Shown: positions 810 to 49,561, counted from the first letter of the stretch. The stretch: DNA of 64,000 nucleotides from Mobula birostris (GCF_030028105.1 NC_092398.1:21090254-21154253); one strand, 5' to 3'. Numbers and translations: made by a program. Notes: generated by a model from the letters alone, not told the origin.

Positions 810-1847
810 TCACACACTGGCAACCGTCCTGGAGATGGTCTTGATGCGAGTGCTGCAGGCTGACTCTGTCGGCTCCTCAGCAAAGGCCAAACGGAGCGAG
901 CTGGACAGGGAGCGCCGGAAGACCTGGCGGAAGTCACGGCCAGCGAAGACATAGAGGATGGGGTTCAGGGCGCTGTTGAAGGAGGCTAGGCCCACGGACA
1001 ATGTATCCCAGATGAAGGCCACTTGAAGATTGAAGAAAGCCTGAGCTAGGCCGCAGATGTGGTATGGGAGCCAGCAGATGAAAAAGGCAGCAACTACAAA
1101 TGCAATGAGGCGGATAGGCTTCCTGGTCTTGCTGGACTTGGCGAACTTGCCCCTCTGCAGCTTCTGACCGATCAGGAGGTAGCAGGATGCCATGATGAGG
1201 AAGGGGAAGATGAAGGCAAAGAGGGCCCGTGTCACCTCCACCACCTCCCTGGTCCGGTCTCCAAAATATGTCCCGGTGTAGTTAATGGTGCAGAAAATTA
1301 AGCCGAACTCAGAACCTATGTATACCTGCCGTGTCAGCAGAGTGGGCAGGCACATGAGGAAGGCGAGGCCCCAGGCCCCAAGGCAGGCCGCACGCACCCA
1401 AGGCAGGGACCGGTGAGTCTGGGACCAGATGGGTCTAGTGACGGCCAGGCAGCGGTCGATGCTGATCATGGTCAATAGGAAGACACTGGCGTACATGTTG
1501 AGGACAATGGCCGAGGGAAGGAGCTTACAGAGGACATTGTCTCTCGGCCAGGTGTTTACCAAGGCAACTTTAGCCATCTGGAAGGGGAGGGTGAGGCAGT
1601 AGGTCAGGTCTGCCACAGCCAGGTTCAGGAACCACACCGTGTTGACACTCCGTTTCATCTTGAAGCCTGTCACCCAGATGACAGCACCGTTGCCAAGGAC
1701 CCCCAACAGGAAAGTGAGCGTGTAGACAAAGATGGACAAAATGGAGGATGCTGGCAGATGGGTCCTATAATCCACAGGTAAGTTCTCATAGGAGTAGTTT
1801 TCAAAGGGAGTTGTGTTGAAAAAGTAATAATCTCCAGAATAGTCCAT
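810..1847 (-). CDS. C3a/C5a anaphylatoxin chemotactic receptor-like GPCR, copy 1 (subtype A), 345 aa, single coding exon
   Basis: 7TM motifs GN (TM1), [10 protein letters not shown] (TM2), [18 protein letters not shown] (TM3), CWLPYH (TM6), NPILY (TM7). The start MDYSGDYY is in strong context (agcATGg) 6 nt after a polypyrimidine/CAG acceptor. The ORF-track N-terminal 155 aa are intronic low-complexity read-through. Confidence 0.93.
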
Positions 1848-1855
1848 GCTGAGCT

Positions 1856-3870
1856 GGAAGAGAAGATATTGTGGAGGTGAGAGAGGTTGGGAGTGGAGGG
1901 AGGGGACAAGAAGAGAGATGGGTGAGGGAAAGAAGAGGGAAGGAGAGAGATGGGTGAGGGGAAAAAGGAGGCAGGGAGAGATAGGGAGGGAAAAGAGGGA
2001 AGATAGGGTAAAAAAGAGAGCTTCATGGGAGAGGAGAGGTAGGTAAAGATGATGGAGGCCAAAAGGGGAGTGAAGGGAGAAGGGGAGGGGGAGTGGAATG
2101 AACAACAGAGGAGGAACTGAAATGGCTGGATGAGGAGGTGCGAAGGGAGGATGTGAAGGGAAGAGAGGTGGATGGGTAAGAGGAGGATGGTAGGGCAGAG
2201 GAGACAGGGAAGGGAGGACAGGTGAAGATTGGTGAAGATGATGGGGGATGAGGAATGAGGACAGATGAGGGAAGGAAAGAGGAGAGAAATGGGAGAGAGA
2301 GGGAGTAGACAAGGTGAGGGGAGGAGGGGAGGGAAGTGGAAGATGGAGGGGGAGGGGGAAGAGGGAAGGGGAGGGGAAATGGGAAGGAGAGAAGGATGAG
2401 GGAAGGGGAGGGTGAAGGAGATGGGGATGATGAAAAAGAAAGAGGGGAGGAGGGGAAGGGAAGAGGAGGAAGAGGAGAAAGGGGAGGGGGTGGGGAGGAC
2501 ATGAGAGGAAGGGGTGGAGGAGAAAGGGAAGGGGAGGAGGAGGTGGGAATGGGAGGGGAGGAGGAGGAGGGAAGAGGTGGAGGAGGGAGGGTGAGGAAGA
2601 GGGAGGAAGAAGAAGAGTGAGGGGAAAAAGGAAGAGGGAGGGGAAGGAGGAAGATGGAATGGGAGGAGGAGGAGGGGGTGCAAGGAAGTGCAGAGTGTAC
2701 AGGGAGGAGGAGGAGGGTGGAAAGGGAGGAGGTGAAGGAAGAAAGAGTGGAGGAAGAGAAGGGCAGGAATGGGAAGGGCTAGAAGGGACGGGAAGAAGAG
2801 GAGGAGGGAAGGGGTAGGTGAACAGGAAGGAAGGGGAGGGTGAACAGGACTGGGAGTTGTAGGGAACGGAAGGAAGGGAGGATAAAAGAGGGAGTGGAAG
2901 AAGAGAGTGGGGGGAAGAGGAGGAAGGGGAAGGAAGAGGAGTGAAGGGGAGGAGAAGAGAAGGGGAGGAGGAAGGAAGGGGAGGAGGAAGGAAGGGGAGG
3001 GGAGAGGGAGGGAAGGGGAGGAGGAGGGAATGGGAGGGGGAGGAGGAGGGATGGGGAGGGGGAGGAGGAGGGATGGGGAGGGGGAGGGGGAAGAAGAGTT
3101 AAGCTGGAAGCATTGAGTAGGAGATGGAAATTGAGGGGTGAAGCTAAAGGGAAGCAGGGAAGGGGTAGAGATGGGGTGTGGTGAAGGGAGGTTGCAGTAA
3201 GTGTCAGGGACAAGCAAAGAGAAACAGGGACAGAGGATGTGAGGTGGAGCGGGGAAAGGTTTGAATGCAGGAATGATGGAAAGAATAAGGAGGGAAATGG
3301 GAAAGGTGAGTGACAAAGGGTGGAGGGGGTAGGGGAAGAGATGGAGAGGTGGGAAAAACAAAAAAGGGTGGGGTGAAGGTTTGAAGGGGGTGGGAAGGAG
3401 ACAGATCCTAGGTGGAGTTATGGAGAACATAGGCCAAGGACAACAGAGGGGGCGGGGTGAAATGGGAGGGAAAAGGTGGGGTGGAAGAGGGGATCGGAGG
3501 GGGATGGAGAGAAGAAGAGAACTGGGAAGAGAAAGAGGGAGAGAGAAAAGGGGAAAGACAGGGGGAAGGAGGAAGAAAATGGGAAGAGAGAGAGAAGAAG
3601 GGGATGAGGAAGAGCTGGGAAGAGGGGAGAAGAGCGAGGAAGGAGAGGTGGGAAAGGGAGGGAAATGTGGGGGGAAAGGGAAAGGGGGAGAGGGAGGAAT
3701 ATGAGAGAGGAAGAGGGGGAGGGGAGCGAGGATGTCGAGTGCAGAAGGAACAGGGAGGGGAGGGGAATGGGAGTGAGCAGGGAGAGAGATGGGGATTGAA
3801 CAAGGGAAAGGGGTAAAGGTGGAAAAGAAGGGTAAGGGAAGGTTAAGGGGAAAAGACAGAGAGGACGGAG
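1856..3870. repeat. GA-rich low-complexity tract (intronic; pyrimidine-rich on the coding strand)
   Basis: About 2 kb of nearly pure G/A (GGA, GGGA, GAA motifs). Confidence 0.95.
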
Positions 3871-4191
3871 GTCACAACCATCTCCCCCCTCACTGCCCCT
3901 CCTGCACCACGACGCTCACTCCTCACCAGCCCGCACATGGCGCATTGGCTCTCCTCCCTGTCAGCCCCCTCCAGCCCCACAGCAGAGACGGGAAATGGAC
4001 GGGGAAGGGGGAGAAAGTGGCCTTCAGCGTGACGCTCCCTCCTCACCTCCTCACCGAAATGAACGCAGTGCGCTCCTCCATCCTCACCTCCCCACACCCA
4101 CCCCCCCGCACCCTCCCCACCATTCATCATCCGCTGCCGGCCCCGAGGAACCCCAGCTCCGGCATCCCTTCCTGGGACCCCACCAACTCAC

Positions 4192-4580
4192 CTTGGAGCC
4201 TGCTCCCCCTCTCGATGAAGTTCAGCCTCCCCGTAATCTCCGGCTCACTCCATCCCCCGGGCAGCAGAGAGTTGCACCCAGATCCCAAACCGTTGCGACC
4301 ACCGCAACCAATCCTCGACATGAACCGTGCAGAAACGAACGGAATCGCTGTCCTCCGCCCCCGGGAGAGCAGGGAAGGTGGAACAGGACACTGGTGCGGG
4401 AGAGGTCCGGAGAGCGGGGTGGGTCCCGTCTGAGGCTGACAAACACATCGTTATGATTTCGTCACATTCTTTAATATCTGGTGTCTGGTTTATCAGCTCA
4501 GTTCCTCAAACTGAACTCAGCTGCGGACCGCAAGGCATTGAAGACAAATCACAGCAGTTCCTGAATGAGACAAAGTGTAA
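4192..4580 (-). promoter_or_regulatory. Putative 5' non-coding exon and proximal promoter, copy 1
   Basis: Consensus donor AAG|GTGAGT (intron 1854-4191). Upstream motif cluster: C/EBP-ATF-like ATTTCGTCAC 4456, GATA TGATAA about 4490, PU.1/ETS GAGGAACTG 4499-4507, E-box CAGCTG 4518, second ETS CAGGAACT 4556. TSS not determinable. Confidence 0.55.
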
Positions 4581-4582
4581 AT

Positions 4583-5730
4583 CTCCCATCACATATTCCT
4601 GCGGTGAAGCACAGAGTGAAGCACCCCACCCCGTCCCATCACACTCTCCCGTGGTCAGATACAGAGTGAAGCTCCCTCCACACCCTCCCATCACACACTC
4701 CAGGGGTCAGACACAGAGTGAAGCTCACTCCACACCATCCCATCACACACCCCCCGGGTCAGACACAGAGTGAAGCTCCCCCACACCATCCCATCACACA
4801 TTTCCGGGGTCAGACACAGAGTGAAGCTCCCTCCACACCGTCCCATCACACACTCCTTGGATCAGACACCGTATTAATTTCCCTGTTCACCATCACACCA
4901 CTCATTCCCAGGGTCAAACATAGAGTGAAACCTCCTCCACAGCGTCCCATCACACACACATCTGGGGTCAGACACAGAGTGAAGCTCCCTCCACACTGTC
5001 CCATCACACATATCTGGGGTCAGACACAGAGTGAAGCTCCCTCCACACCCTCCCATCACACACTCCAGGGGTCAGACACAGAGTGAAGCTCCCTCTGTAC
5101 CGTCCCATCACACACTTCTGGGGTCAGACACAGAGTGAAGCTCCCTCCGTACCGTCCCATCACACACTTCTGGGGTCAGACACAGTGTGAAGCTCCCTCC
5201 ACTTCGTCCCATCACACACCCCCTGGGTCAGACACAGAGTGAAGCTCACTCCACACCATCCCATCACACACCCCCCGGGTCAGACACAGAGTGAAGCTCC
5301 CCCACACCATTCCATCACACATTTCCAGGATCAGACACAGAGTGAAGCTCCCTCCACACTGTCCCATCACACACATCTGGGGTCAGACACAGAGTGAAGC
5401 TCCCTCCACACCGTCCCATTACACTCTCCCAGGGTCAGACACAGAGTGAAGCTCCCTCTGCACTGTCCCATCACACACATCTGGGGTCAGACACAGAGTG
5501 AAACCTCCTCCACACCATCCCATCACACACTCCCGGGGTCAGACACAGAGTGAAGCTCCCTCCACCCTGTATATCACACACTCCCGGGGTCAGACACACA
5601 TTAAATCTCCCTTTGCCCTCTCCCAGGGTCAGAAACTGAGTGAAACTCCCTCTGCACGTCTGATCACACACTCCCAGGGTCAGACACAGAGTGAAGCTCC
5701 CTGCACACCATCCCATCACACACTCCCGGT
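4583..5730. repeat. 52-bp minisatellite, about 22 units
   Basis: Consensus approximately GGGGTCAGACACAGAGTGAAGCTCCCTCCACACCGTCCCATCACACACTCCC; GTGAA anchors about 52 bp apart from 4616 to 5691. Confidence 0.95.
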
Positions 5731-7850: not shown

Positions 7851-7864
7851 GCTAACTCGCTTAT

Positions 7865-9007: not shown

Positions 9008-10907
9008 TGTAACAGTGCAACAATAATAGGGTTGTTGTGATGGGTAATTTTAACTTTCGTAATATTGACTAGCATCTCCTTCGAGCAAGGGGTTTAGATG
9101 GAGTGGAGTTTGTTAGGTTTATACGGGAAGGTTTCCTGATGCAATATGTAGATATGCCAACTAGAGGAGAGGCTGTACTTGATCTAGTATTGGGAAATGA
9201 ACCTGGTCCGGTGGCAGGTCTCTCAGTGAGAGGACATTTTGGAGGTCGTGATCACAACTCTATCTCCTTTACCATGGCGCTGGAGAGGGATGGGAGCTGT
9301 AAACATTTAATTGGGGTGGGGGAAATATGATGCAGGAACTTGGGAAGATAAATTGGGAGCAGCAGTTCTCAGGGAAATGCACAGCAGAAATGTGCCAAAT
9401 GTTCAGGGAACATTTACATGGCATACTGCATAGGCATGTTCCACTGAGGCAGGGAAAGAATGACAGGGTAAAACACCCAAGGTGCACAAAGGATATGGAA
9501 AATCTAGTTGAGGAAAGCTTACGAAAGTTTCAAGACACTAGGTACTGTTAGAGCTCTAGAAAATTACAAGGGTGCCGGGAAGGAGCTCAAGAATGAAATG
9601 AGGAGAGCTAGAAGGGCCATGAAAAGGCCTTGCCGAGCAGGATTGAGGAAAACTCCAAGGCATTCTTCAAGCAAGTGAAGAGCAAGAGGATGAGCTGTGT
9701 GAGAATAGGACCAATCAGGAGTGAGAGTGGAGACACGTGCATGGAGTCAGAGGAGGAAGATGAGGAACTTGATGAATACTTTGCTTCAGTATTCACCAGT
9801 AAAAAGGACCCTGGCAATTATGGGGATAACTTAAAGCAGACTGAAATGCTTGAGTGTGTAGATAGCAAGAATGAGGATGTGCTGGAGCTTTTGAAAGGTA
9901 TTATGTTAGATAAGTCACCGGAACCAGGCGGGATATACCCAAATCTACCGTGGGAAGCAAGGGAGGAAACTGCTGAGCCTCTGGCGATGATCTTTGCATT
10001 ATCAATAGGTAATGAAGAAGTACCGGAGGATTGGAAGCTTGCAAACGTTGTTCCCTTGTTCAGGAAGGAAGTAGAGAAAACCCAGGAAATTATAGACAAG
10101 TAAGTCTTACTTCAGTGGTGGGCAAGTTGTTAGAGAAGATTGAGAGGCAGTTTTTTTTGAGCATTTGGAGGATATAATCTAATTTGGGATAGTCAGCATG
10201 GCTTTATCAAGGGCAGGTCATGCCTTACGAACCTGATTGAATTCTTTAAGGATGTAACAAAACACATTGATGAAGGTAGAGCGGTGAATGTAATGTGTAT
10301 GGATTTCAGTAAGGCAGTTGATATGGTTCCCCATGTGAGGTTCAATCAGAAAGTAATGAAGCATGGGATCTAAGGAGACCTTGCTTTGTGGATCCAGAAT
10401 TGGTTTGACCAAAGAAGGCAAAAGGTGGTAGTGGATGGTTCGTATTCTGCATGGAGGACGGTGACCACTGGTGTTCTGAGGGATCTGTTCTGGGATCCCT
10501 CCTCTTTGTGATTTTTTTAAATGACCTGGATGAGGAAGTAGAAGTGTAGGTTGGTAAGTTTGTTGATGATACAAAAGTTGGGGGTGTTGTGGATAGTCTG
10601 GAGGGCTGACAGCGTTTACAACTCGACATCAATAGGATCCAAAGCTAGGCTGAGAAATGGCAAATGGAGTTCAGCCCCAATAAGTGTGAAATGATTCATT
10701 TCAGTAGGTCAAATTTGAAGACAGAGCATAACATTAACGGTAAGGCTCTCAGCAGTGTGGAGGATCAGCGAGATCTTGGGGTCCATGTCCCTAGGACACT
10801 CAACCTGCTGTGTGGGTTGACAATGTTGTTAAGAAGGCGTATAGTGTGTTGGCCTTTATCAACTGTGGACTTCAGATCAACAGTCGTGAGGTAATGTTAC
10901 ATCTATA
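9008..10907 (+). mobile_element. Degenerate CR1 LINE ORF2 (endonuclease C-term to RT), many stops and frameshifts
   Basis: [40 protein letters not shown] and KCEMIHF motifs. Confidence 0.9.
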
Positions 10908-11099
10908 TGTAATACCCTGGGAAAGGTTTCACTGATATATTTAAGGTGGAGGTGGATGGGTTTGGGATGCATCAGAGCATCAACGGTTAACAGAAAGAAA
11001 GCAGGAGATTGGAGTTGAGAGGAATCATAATCAATGTAAAGGTGGAGCAGACTCAACAGGCCTCATGGCCTAATTCTGTTCCTCTGCCTTGAGGCCTCC

Positions 11100-11300
11100 T
11101 GCTTCAGCTCTGAATGCAAGTTCACAATCACCATTCATCGTCATATTCCGGAGCAGTTTACCATGAGGGGCCTTGTTAAGTGCCTTACTGAAGTCCATGT
11201 GGACACAGCCACTCTCCTACCCTTGCCAATCGCCTTCATCACCTCCTGAAAAAGCTCAGCCAAGCCTGTCTGCCATGACCTGCTCTGTAAAAGGCCACGC
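11100..11300 (-). mobile_element. Old CR1 RT fragment, antisense (also about 26410-26600, 45270-45460, 63148-63340)
   Basis: LAELFQEVTKAI..GR.V.VVHMDFSKAFNKAPHGKLL in paralogous copies. Confidence 0.7.
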
Positions 11301-11524
11301 TCACATCCCTCCTCTTCATTGACTGGGGGTCTCGCAGGACACCCAGCACCACCACCTCCTTAATCTCAGCGTTCCCGTGCAAATTAGCAAGGCCCACACC
11401 ATGCTCACTACCTTTCTTGTCCTTTTCCATGCTAGATTCCAACACAAGTTAGTCGCACGGTACCCCACCCCTGTCCAGTTATTCCAAACATAAGCACCTC
11501 CCTCGGTTCCCGACCCTCAGGTCC

Positions 11525-11858
11525 TCAAAAAGGTGGCATCCATCATTAAGGACCCCCATCACCCAGGCCGTGCCTTGTTCTCATTGATACCATCGGGAAG
11601 GAGGTACAGAAGCCTGAAGTCACGCACTCAATGATTCAGGAACAGCTTCTTCCCATCTGCCATCAGATCTCTGAATAGGCATTGAACCCAGGAACGCGAC
11701 CTCACTGCTTTTTTTATTTCTATTTTTGCACTACTTATTGAATTTAACTATTATATATATACTTGCTGTAATTCAGTTTTTTCTCTATTGTTTGTATTGC
11801 AATGCATTGTACACAGTCAATAAATTTCACAACATATGCCAGAGATTCTGATTCTGGT
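11525..11858 (+). mobile_element. Rex1/Babar-type LINE 3' end (also about 26845-27178, 45705-46038, 63585-63913)
   Basis: Translates to KVASIIKDPHHPGRALFSLIPSGRRYRSLK...FRNSFFPSAIRSLN, followed by an AT-rich UTR, AATAAA and an (ATTCTG)n tail. Confidence 0.75.
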
Positions 11859-12724
11859 TCAATACAATACCTTGGGATTCTCTTTTATCCCACTCACCAA
11901 GGAGACTTTTGGCCACCTTCTTGAGTTCTATCCTGCATACATTTGTCTCTCATCCTCACTGAGGGGTCGTTCTCTGATAACTGCTGCGGGATTGGACCCA
12001 GGGATCCACTGTCAAGCCTGTGTGGGGTGCCTTCAGTTTAAACATCTGCTGTTGCAGAACCGGTTATGGACAGCAGGGGGAGACATTGTAGAGGGATAAT
12101 CTGTGCCGAGCAACCTGCTGAAATCAGCTGAATCCTTTCTGTACGTGACCCATATCCCACCACTCCCTGTATGATCATTTGTCTATGTACGCTCAGTGAA
12201 CACTTTATTCAGTCCCTCCTGTACTGAATAAACCAGCCACTGGAAGAGTTTAATCTGCGCTGTAACTCAATAAATTAATTAATTAAACAGTCCGGTGCAT
12301 CCACTCCCACCACCACCCATGGCAGCCCGGCACATCCCCTTTAAACTTTCCTTCGTCTCCCCTTCAAACGAAGCCCTCCTCACGGGGGTGGGGGGGCAGT
12401 AGGAGAAACTGATCATCACTGCCCATCCCATCCCTGCCCTCATCATTTTATAAACTTCCGGTAAGGTCTCCCCTCAGCCCCCAGAGAAAACGATCCAGTT
12501 CTGTTTGCCCTCCCCATTCAGCTCAATCTCTACCGACCCCTGGAGTTGCTGCAAGCTTTTCCTTGTAAACCAGGAGACCCCACCCTTTTCTATACCATGG
12601 TCCGATTAAGCAAGGGGTCTCCCCGGACCCCAGGGTGGGAAACGCTGGTGTAAACACAAGAGATGCTCCAGCTGTTGCTGACTCTTCCAGAGCAACACAC
12701 ACAGAATGTTGGAGGAACTATTGT

Positions 12725-13088
12725 TCGCTCATTATGCGCCACGTCGTCTGGCGTAGGCAATCGCGGCCTTCGATCAAGATTGTTCTTGGCAAATTTTTCT
12801 GCAGAAGTGGTTTGCCATTGCTATCTTCTTGGACGTGTCTTTACAAGACACGAGACCCCAGCCATTGTCAATACTCTTCAGAGATTGTCTGCCTGGCGTC
12901 AGTGGTCGCATAACCAGGACTTGTGATATGCATCAGCTGCTCGTCTGACCATCCACCACCTGCTCCCACGGCTTCACGTGACCCTGATCGGAGGGTCTAC
13001 ACCTTGCCCAAGGGTGACCTGCAGGTGAGTGGAGGAAAGGAGCACATTACATCTCCTTTGGTAGAGACGTATCTGCACCCCACCACCT
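12725..13088 (-). mobile_element. SINE-like element with RTE-type tail (also about 28792-29153; truncated 47220-47450)
   Basis: Minus strand has GCAATGGCAAACCACTTCTG, the motif typical of RTE/BovB-mobilised SINE 3' ends. Confidence 0.45.
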
Positions 13089-13194
13089 TAGAAACTATGG
13101 AAAGAGATAAGCAGTCACATTTATTCATTTCCATATTTGAATAAGCATACCTATTTACTCATTGTGTTAATTATGTTTAATAATTTTATTTTTA

Positions 13195-13300
13195 ATGAAT
13201 AAACAGTCCTGGTGAAGGACTCGGCCCAAAAGGTCAACTGTTTATTCATCTCCACAGACGCTGCCTGACCTGCTGAGTTCCCTCATTTTGTGTCTGTTGC
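13195..13300 (+). mobile_element. Penelope-like element remnant with a decayed minimal hammerhead ribozyme (also 29260-29365, 47557-47662)
   Basis: 14-bp stem ATGAATAAACAGTC/GACTGTTTATTCAT (one mismatch in this copy) enclosing CTGGTGA..AAAA..GTC, versus the canonical core CTGANGA..GAAA..GTC. Confidence 0.55.
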
Positions 13301-14165
13301 CCCTGAAGTTTTTCGTTACACTTGTACCGCACCAGATATAGACATGAAAATACACAGGAATTGTGGTGATTTTTAATTGGAACTGTGACAGTCTTGAAAT
13401 ATTTGCAAGCAGTTTATCGAAGGCTCTCTTCTCTAGTTCACGTCAGATATAACCTCAGTTCACTCCAGCAAATGCTTTGCTGATCCACATTCCAGTGCCT
13501 GCTGCCTCTTGTGTCTTCATTCTCCCTCAAGCCAGAGAGGTGACGGAGCAACTTCAGAAACAATTGGTCAGCCCACAGCTGGAGTACAGTGTCCACTTCT
13601 GGTCTCCCCACTACAGGAAGGAGGTGACGTTGTCCGGGACAGAGGGTTTCAGTTACGAGGAGAGACCAGTGACGCAGCCTCTGTTCTCCCTGGAGCCGAG
13701 GAGGCTGTGCAAGGACCTGATGGAGGGGGCTGGGGTGGGGTGGGCGGGGTCAAAAAATCACGGCGCGATCGAGCTGTCATATCTGGTCGCCGTGGCAATG
13801 AGGAAGCCGGGCCCAAGAGACAGTGAACCAACTTGGCCTGGACTCACTCAGAGGGTCCTTTGAGCTGGGGCAAGTTTTTTTTGATAGGACGCTATCTGGC
13901 GACTGCGGGGAAAAATTCAGTTAGTTGCTCAGGGGATGAACAGATCACTGGCAAATAGGTGGTTGGGGAGGTGGGGATCAGTGGTTGGCTATCAGCCGAG
14001 GATTCTGGTTCACTAGGCCTTGTAGGACTGGAACAATGGTAGGCCAAGTGGGGGAGGGAATGGGTGCGTTAATGGCGGGAGATGACAGAGGGCAATATGG
14101 AGTATAGGGTACCAATAACAGGACAGAGCGAGGAGCCTGCACTGGGGGGACCAGAGGGAGAGTCC

Positions 14166-15203: not shown

Positions 15204-15211
15204 GCTGAGCT

Positions 15212-17940: not shown

Positions 17941-17941
17941 T

Positions 17942-31250: not shown

Positions 31251-31259
31251 GCTGAGCCT

Positions 31260-36220: not shown

Positions 36221-39200
36221 AAGACAATGTTTATATTAGGATATAGGATAAAGATGAAATAAATAAAATGTATATTCAAAAGATTCAAAGTACATTTATT
36301 ATGAAAGGATGTATAAATGATACAACCTTGAGACTTGTCTGCTTCCAGAAAGCCGCAAAGCAAGGAACACAAAAGAACCAAAAGAATCCAATTAAAATAT
36401 AAAGACCAACCACCAATGGGCATAGAAAGAAGGTGTTGTGGGGGGGGTGGGGTCCTTCCAAACAATGGAAGCGAGCATTCCAAAACAGATTGAATCCTTG
36501 GGTCTGTGACAGGGTCCTGAATTACCCCTAAGAACTGTGTTTTTAAAAAGAGAGAGAGAGCTATTTAACACTGACATCTTGTTTTTAAGAGAGAGAGAGA
36601 GAGACAAAGACTGCTCACAGTTTGTTTATTCTTTCCCAAGGACATCGCCTGCTTGTACGTTCTTACAGACAGAGAAGGGAGGAGCTGTTATTTGAGAGAT
36701 AGTTGGTACTCAGTACGGGGAGATAAATAGAAGGTCAGATGATAGACCGGAGAGACATGGTTTTGGACACTGAATGAGCTTTGTTGTGCCCACAGAAAAA
36801 GTGGGTTTTGGAAGATCATTTAGGTGGATTGATCAGTGGCTCTCTCAGTGTGGAGAAGGTGTGACCAGTGGGGAGGTATTTGTGTGGCCAACCCTCACCT
36901 GGGTTGATTGCTCCACCACAGAAGAACGGTCCCCTTTCTTGTGGTCACATCCGCCGTCCTCCCCATCTCTCCCTCGACTCCCCCCCAAAACCCCCGTCCC
37001 CAGTCATATGATTCAGCATTATCATCCAAAAACAAAACGATACATGACCACCCATTGGTTAATAGCACCCTACTGTCTCTATTAACCCAAGCACCTGTCT
37101 AGCTAGAGACTTTCTCAGCATTTAACATAACAAAGAAGCCATTTAAAATTTAACATACAAAGAAACGAAAGACCCCGTACGCTTACTTACATATAATCAA
37201 TGCTAATCTGTTTGATTTACTGCATTTATTTTACCGTATTGCGTGGTCTCTAATAAATTCCACAAGTTAATAGCAATACTGGACTCCAAGGTGTTTTCCA
37301 TTTCTGCTGGTTCTTTAAACCCGTCACGGGGTACGTGACCATTGCCAACCACGGCTGATGAGCCCCATCTTCCCAAAGCAGGTAATGACGGAAAGTGAAA
37401 CTCCAGTCAACAGTTTATTGTTGCCTTTGTGTTTAACAAGTACAAACCACCCCTATAGAGTGAGGGGTGAAGAGAAATCCATTCTCCAGGTGACCCGTTG
37501 TGTTGAATTAGACCATAAAATCATAAGATGCAGGAGCAGAATTAGGCCATTTGAGTCTTCTCAGCCATTCCATCATGGCTGATTTATTATCCCTTCCCAT
37601 AGTGGACACTGTGTGCATATATATAGATATTTTTGATGTATTTATTTATTTTTTGGGGGTTTGGCACGGAACAGACCCTTCCAACCCTTCGAGCTACGCC
37701 GCCCAGCAATCCCCCGATTTAAGCCCAGCCTAATCACAAAACAATTTATAAGGACCAAACTAAACTGCTAACTCTCTTATCTGCTTCACCCTCCCTCCCA
37801 CTCCCTATTCTCCCCTCTCCCATCTGGCTTCTCTCACATCTCCCTCCCTCTCCCCCTTCTCTCCATCCCTCCCCTTTCCTCCCCCTCCCTCCACCTCCAC
37901 TCACTCCCTTTTCCCCTCCTTTCCTCTCCCCTCTTCCCTTTCAAGATACTAGAAGAGAGCCAAAAAATTGCAAGAGTGCTGGGAAGGAGCTCAAGAATGA
38001 AATGAGGAGAGCTAGAAGGGCCATGAAAAGGCCTTGCTGAGCAGGATTGAGGAAAACTCCAAGGCATTCTACAAGCAAGTGAAGAGCAAGAGGATGAGCC
38101 GTCTGAGAATAGGACCAATCAGGAGTGAGAGTGGAGACACGTGCATGGAGTCAGAGGAGGAAGATGAGGAACTTGATGAATACCTTGCTTCAGTATTCAC
38201 CAGTAAAAAGCACCCTGGCAATTGTGGGGATAACTTAAAGTGGACTGAAATGCTTGAGTGTGTAGGTATCAGGAGAGAGGATGTGCTGGAGCTTTTGAAA
38301 GGTATTGTGTTAGATAAGTCACGGGGACCAGGCGGGATATACCCAAATCTACTGTGGGAAGCAAGGGAGGAAATTGCTGAGCCTCTGGCGATGATCTTTG
38401 CATTATCAATAGGGAATGAAAAAGTACCGGAGGACTGGAAGCTTGCAAATGTTTTTCTCTTGTTCAGGAAGGAAGTAGAGAAAACCCAGGAATTTATAGA
38501 CAAGTAAGTCTTACTTCAGTGGTGGGCAAGTTGTTGGAGAAGATTGAGAGGCAGTTTTATTGAGCATTTGGAGAGACATAATCTAATTTATGAGTCAGCA
38601 TGGCTTTATCAGGGACAGGTCATGCCTTACCAACCTGATTGAATTCTTTGAGGATGTAACAAAACACAGTGATGAAGGTAGAGCAGTGGATGTAATGTGT
38701 ATGGATTTCAGTAAAGCATTTGATATGGTTCCCCATGCGAGGTTCATTCAGAAAATAATGAAACATGGGATCTAAGGAGATCTTGCTTTGTGGATCCAGA
38801 ATCCGATTGACCATAGAAGGCAAAGGGTGGTTGTGGATCAGCGAAATCTTGGAGTCCATGTCCCTAGGACACTCAAAGCTGCTGCGCGAGTTGACAATGT
38901 TGTTAAGAAGGCGTATGGTATGTTGACCTTCATCAACTGTGGAATTAAGATCAACAGTCATGAGGTAATGTTACATCTATATGTAATACCCTGGGAAAGG
39001 TTTCACTGCTAATGTAATGGCTTTTCTGTAGCAGCAGTGTTTGGGCCATGGCTAGAGATAACTGGAGCTTTGGCATATACACCATCCAATGAAGGGAGTG
39101 TTTTTTTCTTGTTGTGTGCCTGAGAACAAGGTGATCTGAGTCTTTTGTTCGGCGAGAGACGAAGAGTGAAGATGCCTGAAAGGAGAAGTTGTAGCCAGCA

Positions 39201-41157
39201 GGATGGAGTGGACTTGGAGTCGACAAAGCCCAGGGAAATCGATGGAGGACCAATGGAAGGGAAACCGTGAGCTCCAACTTGAGCACATTATCCTGCCTCG
39301 TTAAAATGGGCCCTTTTCCTTTTGTTTTCTTTACTAACCCTTCTGTCAAATTAAGAATTATAAAGCTAAATTGTTTACTTTCCATATGGTGTATTCTGTT
39401 ATTTCGTGGTTCTGTTATTTCCGCTATTTCATGATAGTATCATTTTGTGGTAGTGTTATTTTGTAGTGTGCTGTCTGCTATTTTGTGTTACTGACCTGTA
39501 ACGGGGGAACTGATCACACAGCATCCACACAAGCAAGGGGTTTTGCACCTCAGGTTCCACACGTTTGGTGGGCCAGAGACAATGTAACAAAACACATTGA
39601 TGAAGGTAGAGCAGTGGATTTAGTGTGTATGGATTTCAGTAAGGCATTTGATAAGGTTCCCCGTGCGAGGTTCATTCAGAAAGTAATGAAGCATGAGATC
39701 TAAGGAGACTTTGCTTTGTGGATCCAGAATTGGCTTGCCCACAGAAGGCAAAGGGTGGGTGTAGATAGTTCGTATTCTGCATGCAGGACAGTGACCAGTG
39801 GTGTGCCTCAGGGAACTGTTCTGGGACCCCTCCTCTTTGTGATTTTTATAAATGACCTGGCTGAGGAAGTAGAAGCGTGGGTTTCTAAGTTTGTTGAAGA
39901 TACATAAGTTGGGGTTGTTGTGTATAGTCTGCAGGGTTACGCCCTAGAGTTACGCCACCAGCCAATCCTCAGGGTTACATATATAATACGTGGTTAGATT
40001 CCACTTGCAGTACTGTGTTCAGTTCTGGACACCTCACTACAGGAAGAATGTGAATATTATAGAGAGGAGATTCACAAGGATGTTGCCTGGATTGGGGAGC
40101 ATTCCTTACAAGAATAGGTTGAGTGAACTTGGCCTTTTCTCCTTGGAGCGACAAAGGATGAGAGGTGACCTGATCAAGGTGTATAAGATAATGAGAGGCA
40201 TTGATTGTCTGGATAGTCAGAGGCTTGTTCCCAGGACTGAAATGGCTAATACAAGGGGGCATAGTTTTAAGGTACAGGGGGGATGTCAGAGGTAAGTTTT
40301 TCACACACAGAGTGGTGGGTACATGGAATGCACTGCTAGTGAAGGTGGTAGAGGTGGATACAATAGGGTCTTTTAAGGGACTCTTAGATATGTACATGGC
40401 AATTAGCAAAATAGAGGGCTATGCGGTAAGGAAGTTCTGGGCAGCTTCTAGAGCAGGTTACTAGGTTGGCACAACATTGTGGGCCGAAGGGCCTGTACCG
40501 TGCTAGATTTTCAAAGTTCTATGTTCTATAGGTGGAGATATGGATAGCGTATGGGACTGGCAAAGCATATAGTGTGATATACTGATGATCAGTTGCAGCT
40601 ATCGGCTGAGAAATGGCAGGTGGAGTTTTACCCAGATAAATGTGAGGTGCTGCACCTTGGTAGGGCAAATGCTGGGAGACAGTGCGCTGCTCAGGGCAAG
40701 ATTCTTAATAGCGTTGCTGAGCAGAGAGATCTTGATGTCCAAGTTCATAGATCCGTGAAACTGTCAACACAGGTCAATAGGGTGTTTAAAAAGTTTTATG
40801 GGATGTTTGTTTTTAGTTCGCAGTGCATTGAGTTCAAGAGGTTGAGATACAACTTTATAAAAGTCAGGTTAGGCCACATCTGGAATAATGCATACAGTCC
40901 TGGTCACCCGACAGAGGACGTTGAGCTTTGGAGAGGGCGCAGAAGAGGTTTACCAGGACGCTGCCTGGTTTCGAGGGCATGTACTATCAGGAGAAGGTGG
41001 AAAAACCTGGAGTGTTTTCTTTGGAGCGACAGAGGTTCAGAGGAGACCTGGTTGAGCTTTATTAGATTATGAGAGACATAGATAGAATAGACAGGAAGTA
41101 TCTTTTTCCCAGGGTAGAAATGTCTAACAGAGGGCATGCATTGGAAGTGAGATGGGG

Positions 41158-44100
41158 TAGAAACATAGAAACATAGAAAATAGGTGCAAGAGTAGGCCAT
41201 TCGGCCCTTTGAGCCTGCACTGCCATTCAGTATGATCATGGCTGATCATCCACCTCAGAACCCTGCACCAGCCTTCCCTCCATACCCCCTGATCCCTTTA
41301 GCCACAAGGGCCATATCTAACTCCCTCTTAAGTATAGCCAATGAACTGGCCTCAACTGTTTCCTGTGGCAGAGAATTCCACAGATTCACCACTCTCTGTG
41401 TGAAGAAGTTTTTCCTAATCTTGGTCCTAAAAGGCTTCCCCTTTATCCTCAAACTGTGACCCCTGGTTCTGGACTTCCCCAGCATCGGGGACAATCTTCC
41501 TGCATCTAGCCTGTTCAATCCCTTTAGGATTTTATACGATTCAATCAGATCCCCCCTCAATCTTCTAAATTTCAACGAGTATAAGCCCAGTTCATCCAGT
41601 CTTTCTTCATATTGAAAGCCCTGCCATCCCAGGAATCAATCTGGTGAACCTTCTTTGTACTCCCTCTATGGCAAGGATGTCTTTCCTCAGATTAGGGGAC
41701 CAAAACTGCACACAATACTCCAGGTGTGGTCTCACCAAGGTCTTGTACAACTGCAGTAGTACCTCCCTGCTCCTGTACTCGAATCCTCTTGCTATAAACG
41801 CCAGCATACCATTCACCTTTTTCACCGCCTGCTGTACCTGCATGCCCACTTTCAATGACTGGTGTATAATGACACCCAGGTCTCGTTGCACCTCCCCTTT
41901 TCCTAATCGGCCACCATTCAGATAATAATCTGTTTTCCTATTTTTGCCACCAAAGTGGATAACTTCACATTTATCCACATTAAATTACATCTGCCATGAA
42001 TTTGCCCACTCACCCAACCTATCCAAGTCACCCTGCATCCTCTTAGCATCCTCCTCACAGCTAACACTGCCACCCAGCTTCGTGTCATCCGCAAACTTGG
42101 AGATGCTGCATTTAATTCCCTCATCCAAGTCATTAATATATATTGTAAACAACTGGGGTCCCAGCACTGAGCCTTGCGGTACCCCACTAGTCACTGCCTG
42201 CCATTCTGAAAAGGTCCCGTTTATTCCCACTCTTTGCTTCCTGTCTGCTAACCAACTCTCCACCCACACCAATACCTTACCCCCAATACCGTGCGCTTTA
42301 AGCTTGCACACTAATCTCCTGTGTGGGACCTTGTCAAAAGCCTTTTGAAAATCAAAATATACCACATCCACTGGTTCTCCCCTATCCATTCTACTAGTTA
42401 CATCCTCAAAAAATTCTATGAGATTCGTCAGACATGATTTTCCTTTCACAAATCCATGCTGACATTGTCCGATGATTTCACTGCTTTCCAAATGTGCTGT
42501 TATCACATCTTTGATAACTGACTCTAGCAGTTTCCCCACTACCGATGTTAGGCTAACCGGTCTATAATTCCCTGGTTTCTCTCTCCCTCCTTTTTTAAAA
42601 AGTGGGGTCACATTAGCCACCCTCCAATCCTCAGGAACTAGTCCAGAATCTAAAGAGTTTTGAAAAATTATCACTAATGCATCCACTATTTCTTGGGCTA
42701 CTTCCTTAAACACTCTGGGATGCAGACCATCTGGCCCTGGGTATTATCTGCCTTTAATCCCTTCAATTTACCTAACACCACTTCCCTACTAACATGTATT
42801 TCACTCAGTTCCTCCATCTCACTGGATCCTCTGTCCCCTACTATTTCTGGAAGATTATTTATGTCCTCCTTAGTGAAGACAGAACCAAAGTAATTATTCA
42901 ATTGGTCTGCCATGTCCTTGCTCCCCATAATCAATTCACCTGTTTTTGTCTGTAGAGGACCTACATTTGTCTTAACCAATCTTTTTCTTTTCACATATCT
43001 ATAAAAGCTTTTACAGTCAGTTTTTATGCTCCCTGCCAGTTTTCCCTCATAATCTTTTTTCCCTTCCTAATTAAGCCCTTTGTCCTCCTCTGCTGAACAC
43101 TGAATTTCCCCCAGTCCTCAGGTGAGCCACTTTTTCTGGCTAATTTGTATGCTTCTTCTTTGGAATTGATACTATCCCTAATTTCCCTTGTCAGCCATGG
43201 GTGCACTACCTTCCTTGATTTATTCTTTTGCCAAACTGGGATGTACAATTGTTGTAGTTCATCCATGCAACCTTTAAATGCTTGCCATTGCATATCCACC
43301 GTCAATCCTTTAAGTGTCATTTGCCAGTCTATCTTAGCTAATTCACGTCTCATACCTTCAAAGTTACCATTCCTTAAGTTCAGAACCTTTGTTTCTGAAT
43401 TAACTATGTAACTCTCCATCTTAATGAAGAATTCCACCATATTATGGTCACTTTTACCCAAGGAGCCTCTCACGACAAGATTGCTAATTAACCCTTCCTC
43501 ATTGCTCAATACCCAGTCTAGAATAGCCTGCTCTCTAGTTGGTTCCTCGACATGTTGGTTCAAAAAACCATCCCGCATACATTCCAAGAAATCCTCTTCC
43601 TCAGCACCTTTACCAATTTGGTTCACCCAATCTACATGTAGATTGAAGTCACCCATTATAACTGCTGTTCCTTTATTGTACACATTTCTAATTTCCTGTT
43701 TAATACCATCCCCAACCTCACTACTACTGTTAGGTGGCCTGTACATAACTCCCACCAGTGTTTTCTGCCCCTTAGTGTTATGCAGCTCTATCCATATCGA
43801 TTCCACATCTTCCCGGCTTATGTCCTTCCTTTCTATTGCGTTAATCTCCTCTCTAACCAGCAATGTTACCCAACCTCCTTTTCTTTCATGTCTATCCCTC
43901 CTGAATATTGAATATCCCTGAATGTTGAGCTCCCATCCTTGGTCACCCCGGAGCCATGTCTCTGTGATCCCAACTATATCATAATCATTAATAACAATCT
44001 GCACTTTCAATTCATCCACCTTGTTACGAATGCTCCTTGCATTGACACACAAAGCCTTCAGGCGCGCTTTTACAACTCTCCTATCCCTTATACAATTATG

Positions 44101-44215
44101 TTGAAAAGTGGCCCTTTTTGATGCTTGCCCTGGATTTTTCGGCCTGCCACTTTTACTATTCACCTTACTACTTTTTGCTTCTACCTTCTTTTTACACCCC
44201 TCTGTCTCTCTGCAC
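41158..44215 (-). mobile_element. CR1 LINE with near-complete but frameshifted ORF2 (APE endonuclease + RT), about 3.06 kb, nested in an older + strand CR1
   Basis: NARSIRNK, GITETWL, YRPPNS, MGDFN, SDHN (endonuclease); [13 protein letters not shown] (RT); (TTTCTATG)n tail at 41158; ORF split into several pieces. Confidence 0.95.
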
Positions 44216-47200
44216 TTCAAAGGAGATGTGGGGGGTAAGTTTTTCACTCAGAGAGTGCTGGATGCCTGGAATGTGCTGCCTCTTATGGCGGTGTGGCAAA
44301 TGCATTAAAGGCTTTTAAGAAACATTTGGATCAGCACATGGATCTGAGGAGATAGAGGGATACAGACATGGAGTAGGTAAAAGGGATTAGTTTATTTGGA
44401 GGGGTTTGATTTGGCTGGTTCAGCACAACTTTGTGGGCCAGATGGTCCATTTCTGTGCTCTTCTGTTCTATGTTATCAGTCTATCTACTCATGTGACCAC
44501 TTTCAGGGAGCTGTGGACTTGGACCCCAAGATCCTTCTGTTATTCATCATCGCTCCCTACATTCCTGCCGTTTCCTGGATACTTTGCCTGAACTTTTCAT
44601 CCTGCAAAGTTAAACACCTCACTTCATCCAGAGTTTACAATCAAAACATCAGTTAAAATCAATTTCTGTACACGGCTGGAAGCCCAAGAACAGTTTATTT
44701 GTCGTAAACGCTGGGAAACCACTAGATCCTTATTTTAAAATGCCTCATGTTCATCTGGATTAAACTTCATCTGCCATTTCTCTGCCCACATTTCCAACTG
44801 TTCTCTATCTTGATGAATTCTTTGACACCGTGACTCACTATCAACAACGTTAGTCTCACATTTAACAATCAGCTAGCTACACTTTCGTCCGGATGATGGA
44901 AATGTGATTTAAATGAAACCTTTTGGATATTGAAAGGGTGAGAGATAATGGACGTAGAGAGGATGTTTCCTATACTGGGGGAGTCTAGGACCAGAGGGCA
45001 CAGCTTCAGAATAGAGGGACTTCCCTTTAGAAAGGAGGTGAGGAAGGATTCCTTTAGGCAGAAGGTGGTGAATCTGTGGAACTATTGCCACAGATAGCTG
45101 TGAATGCCAGGACATTGCATATATTCAAAGTGGAGGTGGATAGGTTCTGGATTCGTCAGAGCGTTAATGGGAAGAAAGCAGGAGATTGGAGTTGAGAGGG
45201 ATCATAATCGATGTAAAGGTGGAGCAGACTCAACAGGCGTCATGGCCTAATTCTGCTCCTATGCCTTGTGTCCTCCAGCTTCAGTTCTGAATGCAAGTTC
45301 ACAATCACCATTCATCGTCATGTTCCGGAGCAGTTTACTATGAGGGGCCTTCTTAAATGCCTTACTGAAGTCCATGTGGACAACAGCTACTCTCCTACCC
45401 TTGCCAATCGCCTTCGTCACCTCCTGAAAAAGCTCAGCCAAGCCTGTCTGCCATGACCTGCTCTGTAAAAGGCCACGCTCACATCCCTCCTCTTCATTGA
45501 CTGGGGGGTCTCTCAGGACACCCAGCACCACCACCTCCTTAATCTCAGCGTTCCCGTGCAAATTAGCAAGGCCCACGCCATGCTCACTACCTTTCTTGTC
45601 CTTTTCCATGCTAGATTCCAACACAAGTTAGTCGCACGGTACCCCACCCCTGTCCTGTGACTCCAAACATAAGCACCTCCCTCGGTTCCCGACCCGCAAG
45701 TCCTCAAAAAAGTGGCGTCCGTCATTAAGAACCCCCATCACCCAAGCCACGCCTTGTTTTCATTGATACCATCGGGGGAGGAGGTACAGAAGCCTGAAGT
45801 CACACACTCAATGATTCAGGAACAGCTTCTTCCCATCTGCCAGCAGATCTCTGAATAGGCATTGAACCCAGGAACACTACCTCACTGCTTTTTTATTTCT
45901 ATTTTTGCACTACTTAATGAATTTAACTATTATATATATATACTTTCTGTAATTCGGTTTTTTCTCTATTGTTTGTATTGCAATGCATTGTACACAGTCA
46001 ATAAATTTCACAACATATGCCAGAGATTCTGATTCTGGTTCAATACAATACCTTGGGATTCTCTTTTATCCCACTCACCAAGGAGACTACTGCCCACCTT
46101 CTTGAGCTCTATCCTGCATACATTTGTCTCTCATCCTCACTGAGGGGTCGTTCTCTGATAACTGCTGCGGGATTGGACCCAGCGATCCACTGTCAAGCCT
46201 GTGTGGGATGCCTTCAGTTTAAACATCTGCTGTTGCAGAACCGGTTATGGACAGCAGGGGGAGACATTGTAGAGGGATAATCTGTGCCGAGCAACCTGCT
46301 GAATTCAGCTGAATCCTTTTTGTACCTGACCCATATCCCACCACTCCCTGCACAATCATGTGTCTATACACACTCAGTAAACACTTTATTCGGTCCCTCC
46401 TGTACTGAATACACCAGCCACTGAGTGTCTGCTCGTGATCTGCTGCTGTATCCTGCCCACTTCACGGTTCGACGTGTTGTGGGTTCAGAAATGTTCTCGG
46501 CACACCTCTGTTGTAATAAGTGGATATTAGAGATACTAAATATAAAACCGCAAACACAGGACAAACTGCCGCCTTCCCGACAGCTTGAGCCCGTCTGGCA
46601 ATTCTCCTCTGATCTCTCTCATTAACAAGGCTTTTTCACTCACAGAACTCAATGGATGTTTTTCCATTTGTTTTTCGCGCCATTCTCTGTAAACTCTACA
46701 GACTGCTGTGCCTGAAAATCCCAGGAGATCAGCAGTTTCTGAGATACTCAAACCACCCCATCTGGCGCCAATAATGCATTCACCAGTTAAAGTAACTTCG
46801 ATCACATTTCATCCCCCATTCTGGTGTTTGGTCTGAACCTCTTGACCACGTCTGCGTGCTTTTATGCACTGGGTTGCCGCCACGTGATTGGCTGATTAGA
46901 TACTTGCACTAACGAAGAGTCCACTGTGTGTAGAAGTCTCTAGTGGTTAGCACGACGCTTTACAGTATGGGAGACCCAGGTTCAATTCCCGCCACTGCCA
47001 GTAAGGAGTTTGTCCGTTCACCCCGTGACTGTATGGGTTTCCTCTGGGTGCTCTGGTTTCCTCCCACAGTGCAAAGCCATACCGGTGGGTAGGTTAATTG
47101 GTGAGGTCTCCCCTCAGCCCCCGGAGAAAATGATCCAGTTTTGTCCGCCCTCCTCATTCAGCTCGATCTCTACCGACCCCTGGTTTTGCTGCAAGCTTTT

Positions 47201-48514
47201 CCTTGTAAACCAGGGGACCCCGCCCATTGTCAATACTCTTCCGAGACTGTCTGCCTGGTGTCAGTGGTCAAATAACCAGGACTTGTGATGTGCAAAAGCT
47301 GCTCGTGTGACCATCCACCACCTGCTCCCACGGCTTCACGTGACCCTGATCGGAGGGTCTACACCTTGCCCAAGGGTGACCTGCAGGCAAGTGGAGGAAA
47401 GGAGCACATTACAGCTCCTTTGGTAGACACGTATCGCCACCCCACCACCCTAGAAACTATGGAAAGTGATAAGCAGTCATCTTTATTCATTTCCATAGAT
47501 GAATAAACATATCTATTAACTCATTTTATTAATTATGTAAAATAATTTTATGTTTAATGAATAAACAGTCCTGGTGAAGGACTCGGCCCAAAAGGTCGAC
47601 TGTTTATTCATCTCCACAGATGCTGCCTGACCTGCTGAGTTCCCTCATTTTGTGTCTGTTGCCCCTGAAGTCTTTCGTTATACTTGTAGCTCACCAGATA
47701 TGGACATGAAAATACACAGGAATTGTGGTGATTTTTAATTGGAACTGTGACAGTCTTGAAATATTTGCAAGCAGTTTATCGAAGGCTCTCTTCTCTAGTT
47801 CACGTCAGATATAACTTCAGTTCACTCCAGCAAATGCTTTTCTGATCCACATTCCAGTGCCTGCTGCCTCTTGTGTCTTCATTCTCCCTCAAGCCAGAGA
47901 GGTGACGGAGCAACTTCAGAAACAATTGGTCAGCCCACAGCTGGAGTACAGTGTCCAGTTCTGGTCTCCACACTACAGGAAGGAGGTGACCACACTGGAA
48001 AGGGTGCAGAGGAGATTCCCCACGACGTTGTCCGGGACAGAGCGTTGCAGTTACGAGGAGAGACCAGAGTCTGTTCTCCCTGGAGCGGGGGAGGCTGTGC
48101 AAGGACCTGATGGAGGGGTCTGGGGTGGGGTGGGGTGCGGGGGGCAAAAATCACGGCCAGATCGAGCTGTCGTATCTGGTCGCCATGGCAATGAGGAAGC
48201 CGGGCCCAGGAGGCAGTAAACTAACTTGGCCTGGACTCACTCAGAGGGTCCTTTGAGCTGGGGCAAGTTTTTTTTGATAGGACGCTATCTGGTGACTGCG
48301 GGGAAATATTCAGTTAGTTGCTCAGGGGATGAACAGACCACTGGCAAATAGGTGGTTGGGGGAGATGGTCAGTGGTTGGCTATCAGCCGAGGATTCTGGT
48401 TCACTAGGCCTTGTAGGACTGGAACAATGGTAGGCAAAGTGGGGGAGGGAATGTGTGTGATAATGGCAGGTCAGAGCAAGGAGCCAGCATTGGCAAGACA
48501 TAGAAAGAGAGCCC

Positions 48515-49552
48515 TCACACACTGACAACCGTCCTGGAGATGGCCTTGATGTGGGTGCTGCAGGCTGACTCTGTCGGCTCCTCAGCAAAGGCCAAACGGA
48601 GCGAGCTGGACAGGGAGCGCCGGAAGACCTGGCGGAAGTCACGGCCAGCGAAGACATAGAGGATGGGGTTCAGGGCGCTGTTGAGGGAGGCTAGGCCCAT
48701 GGACAATGTATCCCAGATGAAGGCCACTTGATGTTTGAAGAAAGCCTGAGCTAGGCTGCAGATGTGGTATGGGAGCCAGCAGATGAAAAAGGCAGCAACT
48801 ACAAATGCAATGAGGCGGATAGGCTTCCTGGTCTTGCTGGACTTGGCGAACTTGCCCCTCTGCAGCATTCGGCCGATCAGGAGGTAGCAGGATGCCATGA
48901 TGAGGAAGGGGAAGACGAAGGCAAAAAGGGCCCGTGTCACTTCCACCACCTCCCTGGTCCGGTCTCCAAAATATGTTCCGGTGTAGTTCAAGGTGCAGAA
49001 AATTAAGCCGAACTCAGAATCTATGTATATCTGCCGTGTCAGCAGAGTGGGCAGGCACATGAGGAAGGCGAGGCTCCAGGCCCCAAGGCAGGCCACACGC
49101 ACCCAAGGCAGGGACCGGTGAATCTGGGACCAAATGGGTCTAGTGACAGCCAGGCAGCGGTCGATGCTGATCATGGTCAATAGGAAGACACTGGCGTACA
49201 TGTTGAGGACGATGGCTGAGGGAAGGAGCTTACAGAGGACGTTGTCTCTCGGCCAGGTGTTTTCCAGGGCAATGTTAGCCATCTGGAAGGGGAGGGTGAG
49301 GCAGTAGGTCAGGTCTGCCACAGCCAGGTTCAGGAACCACACCGTGTTGACACTTCGTTTCATCTTGAAGCCTGTCACCCAGATGACAGCACCGTTGCCA
49401 GGGACCCCCAACAGGAAAGTGAGCGTGTAGACAAAGATGGACAAGATGGAGGATGCTGGCAGATGGGTCCCATTATCCATAGTTAAGAACTCATCGGTGT
49501 AGTTTTCAAAGGAAGTAATGTTGAAAATCTCAAAATATTCAGAACAGGACAT
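48515..49552 (-). CDS. C3a/C5a receptor-like GPCR, copy 4 (subtype B), 345 aa
   Basis: Intact ORF starting MSCSEYFEIF; 4 aa differences from copy 3 (R3C, H6Y, GRTL/GRML, IKTI/IKAI). Confidence 0.93.
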   Translation of the reverse strand: MSCSEYFEIFNITSFENYTDEFLTMDNGTHLPASSILSIFVYTLTFLLGVPGNGAVIWVTGFKMKRSVNTVWFLNLAVADLTYCLTLPFQMANIALENTWPRDNVLCKLLPSAIVLNMYASVFLLTMISIDRCLAVTRPIWSQIHRSLPWVRVACLGAWSLAFLMCLPTLLTRQIYIDSEFGLIFCTLNYTGTYFGDRTREVVEVTRALFAFVFPFLIMASCYLLIGRMLQRGKFAKSSKTRKPIRLIAFVVAAFFICWLPYHICSLAQAFFKHQVAFIWDTLSMGLASLNSALNPILYVFAGRDFRQVFRRSLSSSLRLAFAEEPTESACSTHIKAISRTVVSV

Positions 49553-49561
49553 GCTGAGCCT

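Follow-up and report, generated by a model that had tools for sequence, protein, structure and literature searches.

Each vertebrate has been taken to have one or two conserved anaphylatoxin receptor genes, a rule that rays appear to break. Tandem chemoattractant G protein-coupled receptor (GPCR) genes also occur in another clade, that of the formyl peptide receptors (FPRs), with the rodent Fpr-rs expansion as an example. Selection on the extracellular parts of clustered receptors (FPR1-3) is described in the accessible text of PMC10566242. Among the anaphylatoxin receptors proper, human C3aR residues R161, R340, Y393 and D417 hold the last Arg of the ligand, according to the portion available of 10.1101/2023.01.18.524551, and the accessible part of PMC10518620 presents the N-terminus of C5aR1, with its sulfated Tyr, as a first docking site, while that of C3aR matters little. 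Here, we analyzed a stretch of 64,000 nucleotides from the manta ray Mobula birostris (GCF_030028105.1, NC_092398.1:21090254-21154253; “the window,” with positions counted from its first letter). A spliced ray gene of the C3aR/C5aR family is present there in four intact tandem copies that fall into two types. In our favored reading, which we hold to be probable, this gene encodes a likely anaphylatoxin sensor, and selection has likely diversified its N-terminal docking segment while the activating pocket stayed unchanged.

Four ATG-to-stop open reading frames (ORFs) of 345 amino acids (1,038 bp each) followed one another on the minus strand at steps of 13,356, 16,047 and 18,302 bp and in the order A-A-B-B: copies 1 and 2 (type A; 810 to 1847 and 14166 to 15203) and copies 3 and 4 (type B; 30213 to 31250 and 48515 to 49552). 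All four proteins were present in both NCBI and UniRef (P0122, P0001, P0002 and P0003 for copies 1 to 4), and the ray relatives of these proteins carry the database name C3aR-like. The coding sequences (CDSs) were 99.13% identical between copies 1 and 2 (9 base differences), 99.52% between copies 3 and 4 (5 differences), and 94.3 to 94.6% between types A and B (56 to 59 differences), a four-copy pattern far beyond chance. With 8 family members as queries, no fifth locus, remnant or pseudogene was detected in the window beyond the four genes, and no gene other than these receptors was found in it. A first-pass annotation of this DNA, made from the sequence alone, had described four intact, uninterrupted anaphylatoxin-receptor-like genes in tandem units of 13 to 18 kb and two subtypes, amid decaying transposable elements, in a probable cartilaginous fish. 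The units, the subtypes and the receptor family were all recovered, the closest named proteins came from Mobula and other rays, and pieces of long interspersed nuclear element (LINE) endonuclease and reverse transcriptase lay between the genes; “uninterrupted” applied to the CDS and not to the whole gene, because each copy also had a 5′ non-coding exon and a 1.7- to 2.3-kb intron whose end sits 6 to 7 nt before the ATG.

Sequence and structure comparisons placed the window proteins among class A GPCRs (PF00001, E 1e-51), with the DRC, CWLP and NPILY motifs and the C107/C186 disulfide present. A structure model of copy 3 (pLDDT 78.8) showed seven helices and a hairpin in extracellular loop 2 (ECL2), and its first fold matches were C3aR and C5aR1; by sequence, the best solved-structure matches were C3aR and then C5aR1, with FPRs scoring lower. 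In three trees (66, 30 and 41 proteins), a C3aR plus C5aR clade that included the window proteins was separated from chemerin/FPR-like outgroups with 100/100 support; the outgroup names are database labels, and the trees were built without named mammalian FPRs. The window proteins therein clustered with one gene per shark and chimaera (100/99 with sharks and 95/97 with the chimaera in the 41-protein tree). The single orthologue of sharks and chimaeras (Heterodontus P0014, Callorhinchus P0072) shared clade, loop length and pocket with the window proteins but formed one cluster per species (8 of 8 sharks among the matches, with membership seen in two clusters, of three isoforms and of one protein). 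In two sharks, this orthologue and a C5aR-leaning second gene were found on equal-sized contigs (P0022 and P0214, on a contig of 89,567 bp; P0016 and P0175), a hint at linkage between the C3aR-like and C5aR-like genes of sharks; the human C3aR and C5aR genes lie on different chromosomes.

Within that clade, C3AR1 was the weakly favored sister group and the gene with the highest sequence and fold similarity. Residues C107/C186, D131-R132, R173, R207, Y262 and D281 were found in all four copies, and R173, R207, Y262 and D281 (R4.64, R5.42, Y6.51 and D7.35) correspond to the human C3aR residues R161, R340, Y393 and D417 (numbering counted from solved-structure alignments). In other respects the window proteins departed from C3AR1: their ECL2 segment had 30 residues (63 to 201 in 14 tetrapod C3aRs), their N-terminus had 33 residues and up to 6 Tyr (20 to 23 residues and 0 to 2 Tyr in C3AR1), the equivalent of Y174 was absent, and the gene was multicopy. 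A long loop is not universal among fish C3aRs, as the teleost receptor also has a short ECL2 in the accessible part of PMC8977587. Likeness to C5AR1 lay in the acidic, Tyr-bearing 33-residue N-terminus, the 30-residue ECL2, a CxLxY-type loop motif and, in type A, V at position 7.39; the sequence score was lower than for C3aR. The N-terminus carried 6 Tyr and 2 sequons in type A and only 1 to 2 Tyr and 3 sequons in type B; sulfation of these Tyr is putative. The second gene of sharks grouped with C5AR1 in two trees (97/92 and 87/87), a placement left open by the 41-protein tree.

Several results weigh against a specific C3AR1 assignment. Grouping with C3AR1 received 90/80 support with 66 proteins and 70/65 with 30 proteins under a mixture model, and was open with 41 proteins and more taxa. 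Grouping with C5aR was not rejected in the approximately unbiased (AU) test (p 0.36 and 0.27), nor, across three trees and five topology tests, was grouping with C5aR or the second shark gene (AU p 0.13 to 0.36); the C5AR1 grouping was never the best tree. All 14 tetrapod C3aRs, and none of 7 C5aRs, have Tyr two positions after the ECL2 Cys; the window proteins have Ile or Leu there and no Y174 counterpart, and the R, R and Y of the pocket are common to the chemerin/FPR-like outgroups, leaving only D7.35 as more specific. Orthology with C3aR or with C5aR is thus not settled by these sequences, which combine a C3aR-like core with a C5aR1-like ectodomain; the window proteins would work like anaphylatoxin receptors, with C3AR1 only a candidate orthologue. 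By analogy with the described receptors, the C-terminal Arg of the ligand would bind R173, R207, Y262 and D281 and elicit Gi-type chemotactic signaling in leukocytes, and the acidic 33-residue N-terminus would serve as a first docking site of the C5aR1 type. Both ligand and cell type are predictions. Given the Tyr-rich N-terminus of type A and the Tyr-poor one of type B, the two types would differ in ligand affinity or preference, or in how exposed they are to microbial blockers.

The case for selection on the docking segment comes from the comparison of the two types. Between copies 1 and 3, residues 2 to 33 differed by 20 nonsynonymous changes in 74 sites and 1 synonymous change in 22, and the other 312 codons by 21 nonsynonymous and 15 synonymous changes, with a ratio of nonsynonymous to synonymous rates (dN/dS) of 0.47 that indicates purifying selection (p 0.03). 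The N-terminal dN of 0.335 was five times the gene-wide dS of 0.064 (Fisher p 3.4e-6), and the adjacent intron differed at only 1 to 4 positions per 100. In a set of 10 Mobula proteins, the N-terminus varied at 19 of 32 sites, compared with 7 of 65 in transmembrane helices 3 and 4 (TM3-TM4). Tempering this signal, the N-terminal region was picked after its differences had been seen, the test is a single pairwise comparison, and within the N-terminal region alone the p value was 0.037. Diversifying selection on the putative docking site is likely on these sequence data, with ligand tuning or microbial blockers as the conceivable driver of N-terminal change.

It is rather unlikely, in our judgment, that the copies are instead a product of dosage or drift and that their N-terminal difference is a gene-conversion mosaic among types A to D (types C and D being represented by M. 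birostris P0124 and P0127). The N-termini do look mosaic, type A keeping the ancestral-like first 12 residues and type B matching C and D at residues 19 to 28; copies 1 and 2 are each changed at a conserved proline; and homogenization between B and D is hinted at by an RNA contig that shows just 7 differences to copy 4 in 617 nt. An older converted tract should, however, carry synonymous changes as well; only 1 was counted here in 22 sites, next to 20 nonsynonymous changes in 74 sites. Nor was the flanking intron more diverged; the same A and B N-termini occur in a second species, and the remaining CDS is under the purifying selection noted above. Under the favored reading of selection on the N-terminus, the copies isolate the docking site on a fixed pocket, and a two-site binding model and the ancestral state of the C3a/C5a receptor become testable with four natural variants. 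As for the two prolines, copy 1 has L51 where most relatives have P, and copy 2 (P88S) has Ser88 in place of a TM2 proline that 77 of the 78 other receptors with the disulfide retain; this copy may be impaired.

Types A and B each paired with one M. hypostoma protein (100/96 and 92/93 in the 66-protein tree), which indicates that A and B arose before the two species diverged and that each type was doubled afterwards. Two further M. hypostoma proteins resembled P0124 and P0127, with a pairing that the tree left open. In the same tree, Mobula and dasyatid copies fell in separate clades (100/99 and 100/97), as expected of lineage-sorted duplicates, a pattern that concerted evolution could mimic. 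The duplication proceeded by whole tandem units, as the flanking spacers were duplicated too: substitutions amounted to 2.05% between units 3 and 4 (252 of 12,310 bases in an alignment that runs to the window end), 3.55% between units 1 and 2 (440 of 12,403 aligned bases), and 6.5 to 7.3% between A and B units. Each doubling left a single step in divergence, as unequal crossing-over would. In the distal part of unit 1 (9528 to 13361), divergence from unit 2 climbed from 1 to 2% up to 4 to 9%, which would place the edge of the crossover behind the A1/A2 duplication near 9.5 kb/22.85 kb; the distal 3′ flank of copy 4 (47800 to 48400, minus strand) was 3 to 8% off copy 3 although the gene body was only 0 to 2% off, which would put the corresponding edge for the B1/B2 duplication near 30.1/48.4 kb. 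Unequal crossing-over may accordingly have given rise to types A to D in a common ancestor of M. birostris and M. hypostoma, with separate doublings of A and B later.

The finding of only one A and one B in M. hypostoma tells against true doubling and is shared with an alternative to which we give a low probability: types A and B are real, but each within-type doubling is an assembly artefact in which two haplotypes were placed in tandem. Such an origin would suit the high identity of both CDS pairs and the lack of copy-4-specific coding contigs among the pieces compared (see below), and a jump between similar 3′ flanks would yield the same junction pattern. An A-A-B-B order by artefact requires, on the other hand, two independent errors together with allele divergence of 2 to 3.6%, and 2% divergence generally exceeds the allele level. 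The units also differ by many indels and by eight minisatellite units besides their substitutions. One DNA and one RNA contig each had 1 of 2 diagnostic differences, as a collapsed mix of copies would, though alleles would give the same. No per-base nuclear heterozygosity for M. birostris was found in the accessible portions of PMC11789554 and PMC10329317. On the reading that the duplications are real, only the A1/A2 and B1/B2 doublings look recent. The lineage-specific recent expansion proposed in the first-pass annotation therefore stands for these two doublings and not for types A and B, which are shared with M. hypostoma, nor for multicopy status as such, which extends to Hypanus, Hemitrygon and Pristis. 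Its birth-and-death model likewise held for birth, in the lineage-sorted duplicates; the window contained no dead copy, and death was only hinted at by P88S in copy 2. The upstream spacer of copy 4 (51680 to 64000) ran in register with unit 3 (33792 to 46125) to the window end, a register that predicts a candidate fifth gene at about 66.4 to 67.4 kb, beyond the window. By the divergence step at B, the 3′ flank of copy 4 would be that of the next gene, and this candidate would therefore probably be of type C or D. Separately, M. hypostoma P0121 and P0123 are labeled isoforms X1 and X2 and are 92.8% identical; they look like neighboring paralogues merged by annotation via near-identical first exons.

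Evidence for splicing and expression came from contigs of sequencing runs, compared over copy 4 and its upstream spacer only, i.e., a type B stretch. A 1,727-nt GT..AG intron of copy 4 (49560 to 51286, minus strand) was skipped by contigs of runs X2, X3 and X7 (3 of 3 RNA runs) and not by those of DNA run X1; the three runs were classed as RNA by this splice behavior, none being listed as RNA on record. The 5′ non-coding exon of copy 4 (51287 to 51433) was 148 nt in spliced contigs, with another contig extending to 51538. In copy 3, the CDS of which was the best fit of the spliced RNA contigs, RNA contigs and comparison among copies delimited a 1,725-nt intron (31258 to 32982), followed by an exon of at least 147 nt identical to copy 4 (32983 to 33129). 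The counterparts in type A were predicted from copy 4 and by homology: in copy 1, a 2,338-nt, purine/pyrimidine-skewed intron (1854 to 4191, GTGAGT..TTCCAG) and an exon with a minimum extent of 4192 to 4338; in copy 2, a 2,342-nt intron (15210 to 17551) and an exon with a minimum extent of 17552 to 17697, all on the minus strand. Splice donor and acceptor were kept in four of four copies. An ATG in exon 1 starts an upstream ORF in another frame. In copies 1, 3 and 4 this ORF is 60 to 68 amino acids long and runs past the main start; in copy 2 it ends after 15 amino acids because of a 1-nt deletion, a difference that could change translation between copies. Other long ORFs (1670 to 3430, 3789 to 4433, 32556 to 33224, 50860 to 51528 and similar) were rejected as low-complexity intron or as antisense to exon 1.

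From 32 of about 129,000 contig matches, 22 pieces covering parts of the gene, 17 of RNA and 5 of DNA, were assigned by the difference counts expected per copy. At informative sites, five of the RNA pieces, among them the coding portions of the two spliced contigs, had the exact copy-3 count; of the remainder, three were near copy 3, two fit copies 3 and 4 alike, two in the distal 3′ flank were copy 4-like, one was ambiguous, and four matched no window copy and probably represent types C or D. Type B is expressed, most clearly copy 3. Against expression of the array as a whole, no piece among the 17 RNA pieces, matched over a B copy, was cleanly type A; copy 4 was backed only by 3′ flank pieces that possibly come from the next gene; and assignment was by count, not by letters. 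Expression was thus borne out for type B and left unmatched for type A. RNA contigs at 48462 to 49488 with 7 to 19 differences fit no window copy and are likely type C or D transcripts, and the 7-difference piece suggests a nearly identical middle in B and D.

The four copies, read in the first-pass annotation as the expansion of a receptor repertoire, turned out to be a small part of a larger ray family. Most redundant matches from birds and teleosts, along with 9 fragments and 2 isoforms, were set aside, and 163 of 313 retrieved proteins were aligned; 111 of the 163 came from five rays (two Mobula, Hypanus, Hemitrygon and Pristis). Among the matches, eight sharks and Narcine had one cluster each, and no skate-labeled protein appeared among the matches listed (best 120 per search). 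Disulfide and pocket were kept in 30 of the 111 ray proteins; the other 81 were without the TM3-ECL2 Cys pair and had an ECL2 segment of mostly 14, 9 or 5 residues, with the Asp of the DRY motif kept in one, R5.42 in two and D7.35 in one. These disulfide-less proteins formed one branch nested among ray genes (0.998, FastTree only), and none was encoded in the window. A model of one member (P0058, pLDDT 74.3) had no ECL2 hairpin, and C3aR was still its best fold match. Members of the branch (P0058, P0071, P0234, P0238, P0252, P0257, P0258, P0266, P0276, P0292 and P0293) carry the database labels C3aR-like or FPR-like. Among the matches of a profile search of 1.8 billion representatives, the 8 new top ones examined were one Pristis member and seven non-ray receptors of other kinds, six of which were fused or repeated gene models. 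Mas-related GPCRs, which are not known to have this disulfide, offer a possible parallel.

At least 7 disulfide-bearing and 11 disulfide-less M. birostris proteins were assigned to a scaffold equal in size to that of the window (40,552,194 bases), and in Pristis, disulfide-bearing and disulfide-less proteins shared a 3.86-Mb contig. This suggests that both kinds of gene lie in one cluster, whether or not they are adjacent. We tentatively propose, as a speculative scenario, a receptor-generating locus confined to rays, in which a single anaphylatoxin-receptor gene may have grown into tens of clustered genes in sawfish, stingrays and mantas. Copies such as those in the window would retune the docking N-terminus, and members of a larger branch would have shed the lid formed by ECL2 together with the disulfide, altered the DRY motif and exchanged the pocket, perhaps becoming open-pocket immune or chemical sensors. 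The disulfide-less branch amounts to a natural lid-deletion series (30 to 14, 9 and 5 residues) in a peptide GPCR. This radiation also bears on the least probable of the explanations considered, that the window receptors have themselves left complement and sense microbial peptides, neuropeptides or waterborne cues as a first step of the larger ray expansion. The sister radiation of 81 ray proteins without disulfide and most pocket residues would fit such a shift. So would the tuning of bacterial ligand binding in FPRs by extracellular positive selection, as reported in the accessible text of PMC10566242. Two sharks/chimaeras surveyed in the available part of PMC7768046 had only 1 to 2 C3 genes and one C5 gene, so that multiplication of ligands does not obviously explain many receptors. 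At each of five pocket sites checked in the 30 disulfide-bearing ray proteins, however, 28 to 30 of them were intact, as expected if a ligand with a C-terminal Arg is still bound. Tandem GPCR arrays are common, and this one is of a known kind, with its proteins already in databases and their function putative; the disulfide-less branch is undescribed. No paper on these ray receptor genes was found in a search that was thin on subscription journals and excluded supplements, so that a gene-family table in a genome paper could list the expansion. An older single-copy paralogue was also observed in four myliobatiform rays (P0023, P0021, P0018 and P0019), with the pocket kept and with intracellular loop 1 and the C-terminus changed.

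The spacers between the receptor genes contained further features that follow the unit structure. Remnants of LINE reverse transcriptase (35672 to 36184 in unit 3, 53557 to 54069 in unit 4) and LINE endonuclease (43024 to 44187 and 61073 to 62068), all on the minus strand, were common to units 3 and 4 and absent from units 1 and 2. Each of the four gene units has a 52-bp minisatellite of 11 to 20 repeats, located some hundreds of bases upstream of exon 1: about 20 units at 4584 to 5729 in unit 1, a tract at 17943 to 19035 in unit 2, 18.8 units at 33403 to 34379 in unit 3, and 10.8 units, eight fewer, at 51707 to 52265 in unit 4. The same minisatellite was extremely abundant in the RNA runs, which marks it as a genome-wide transcribed repeat.

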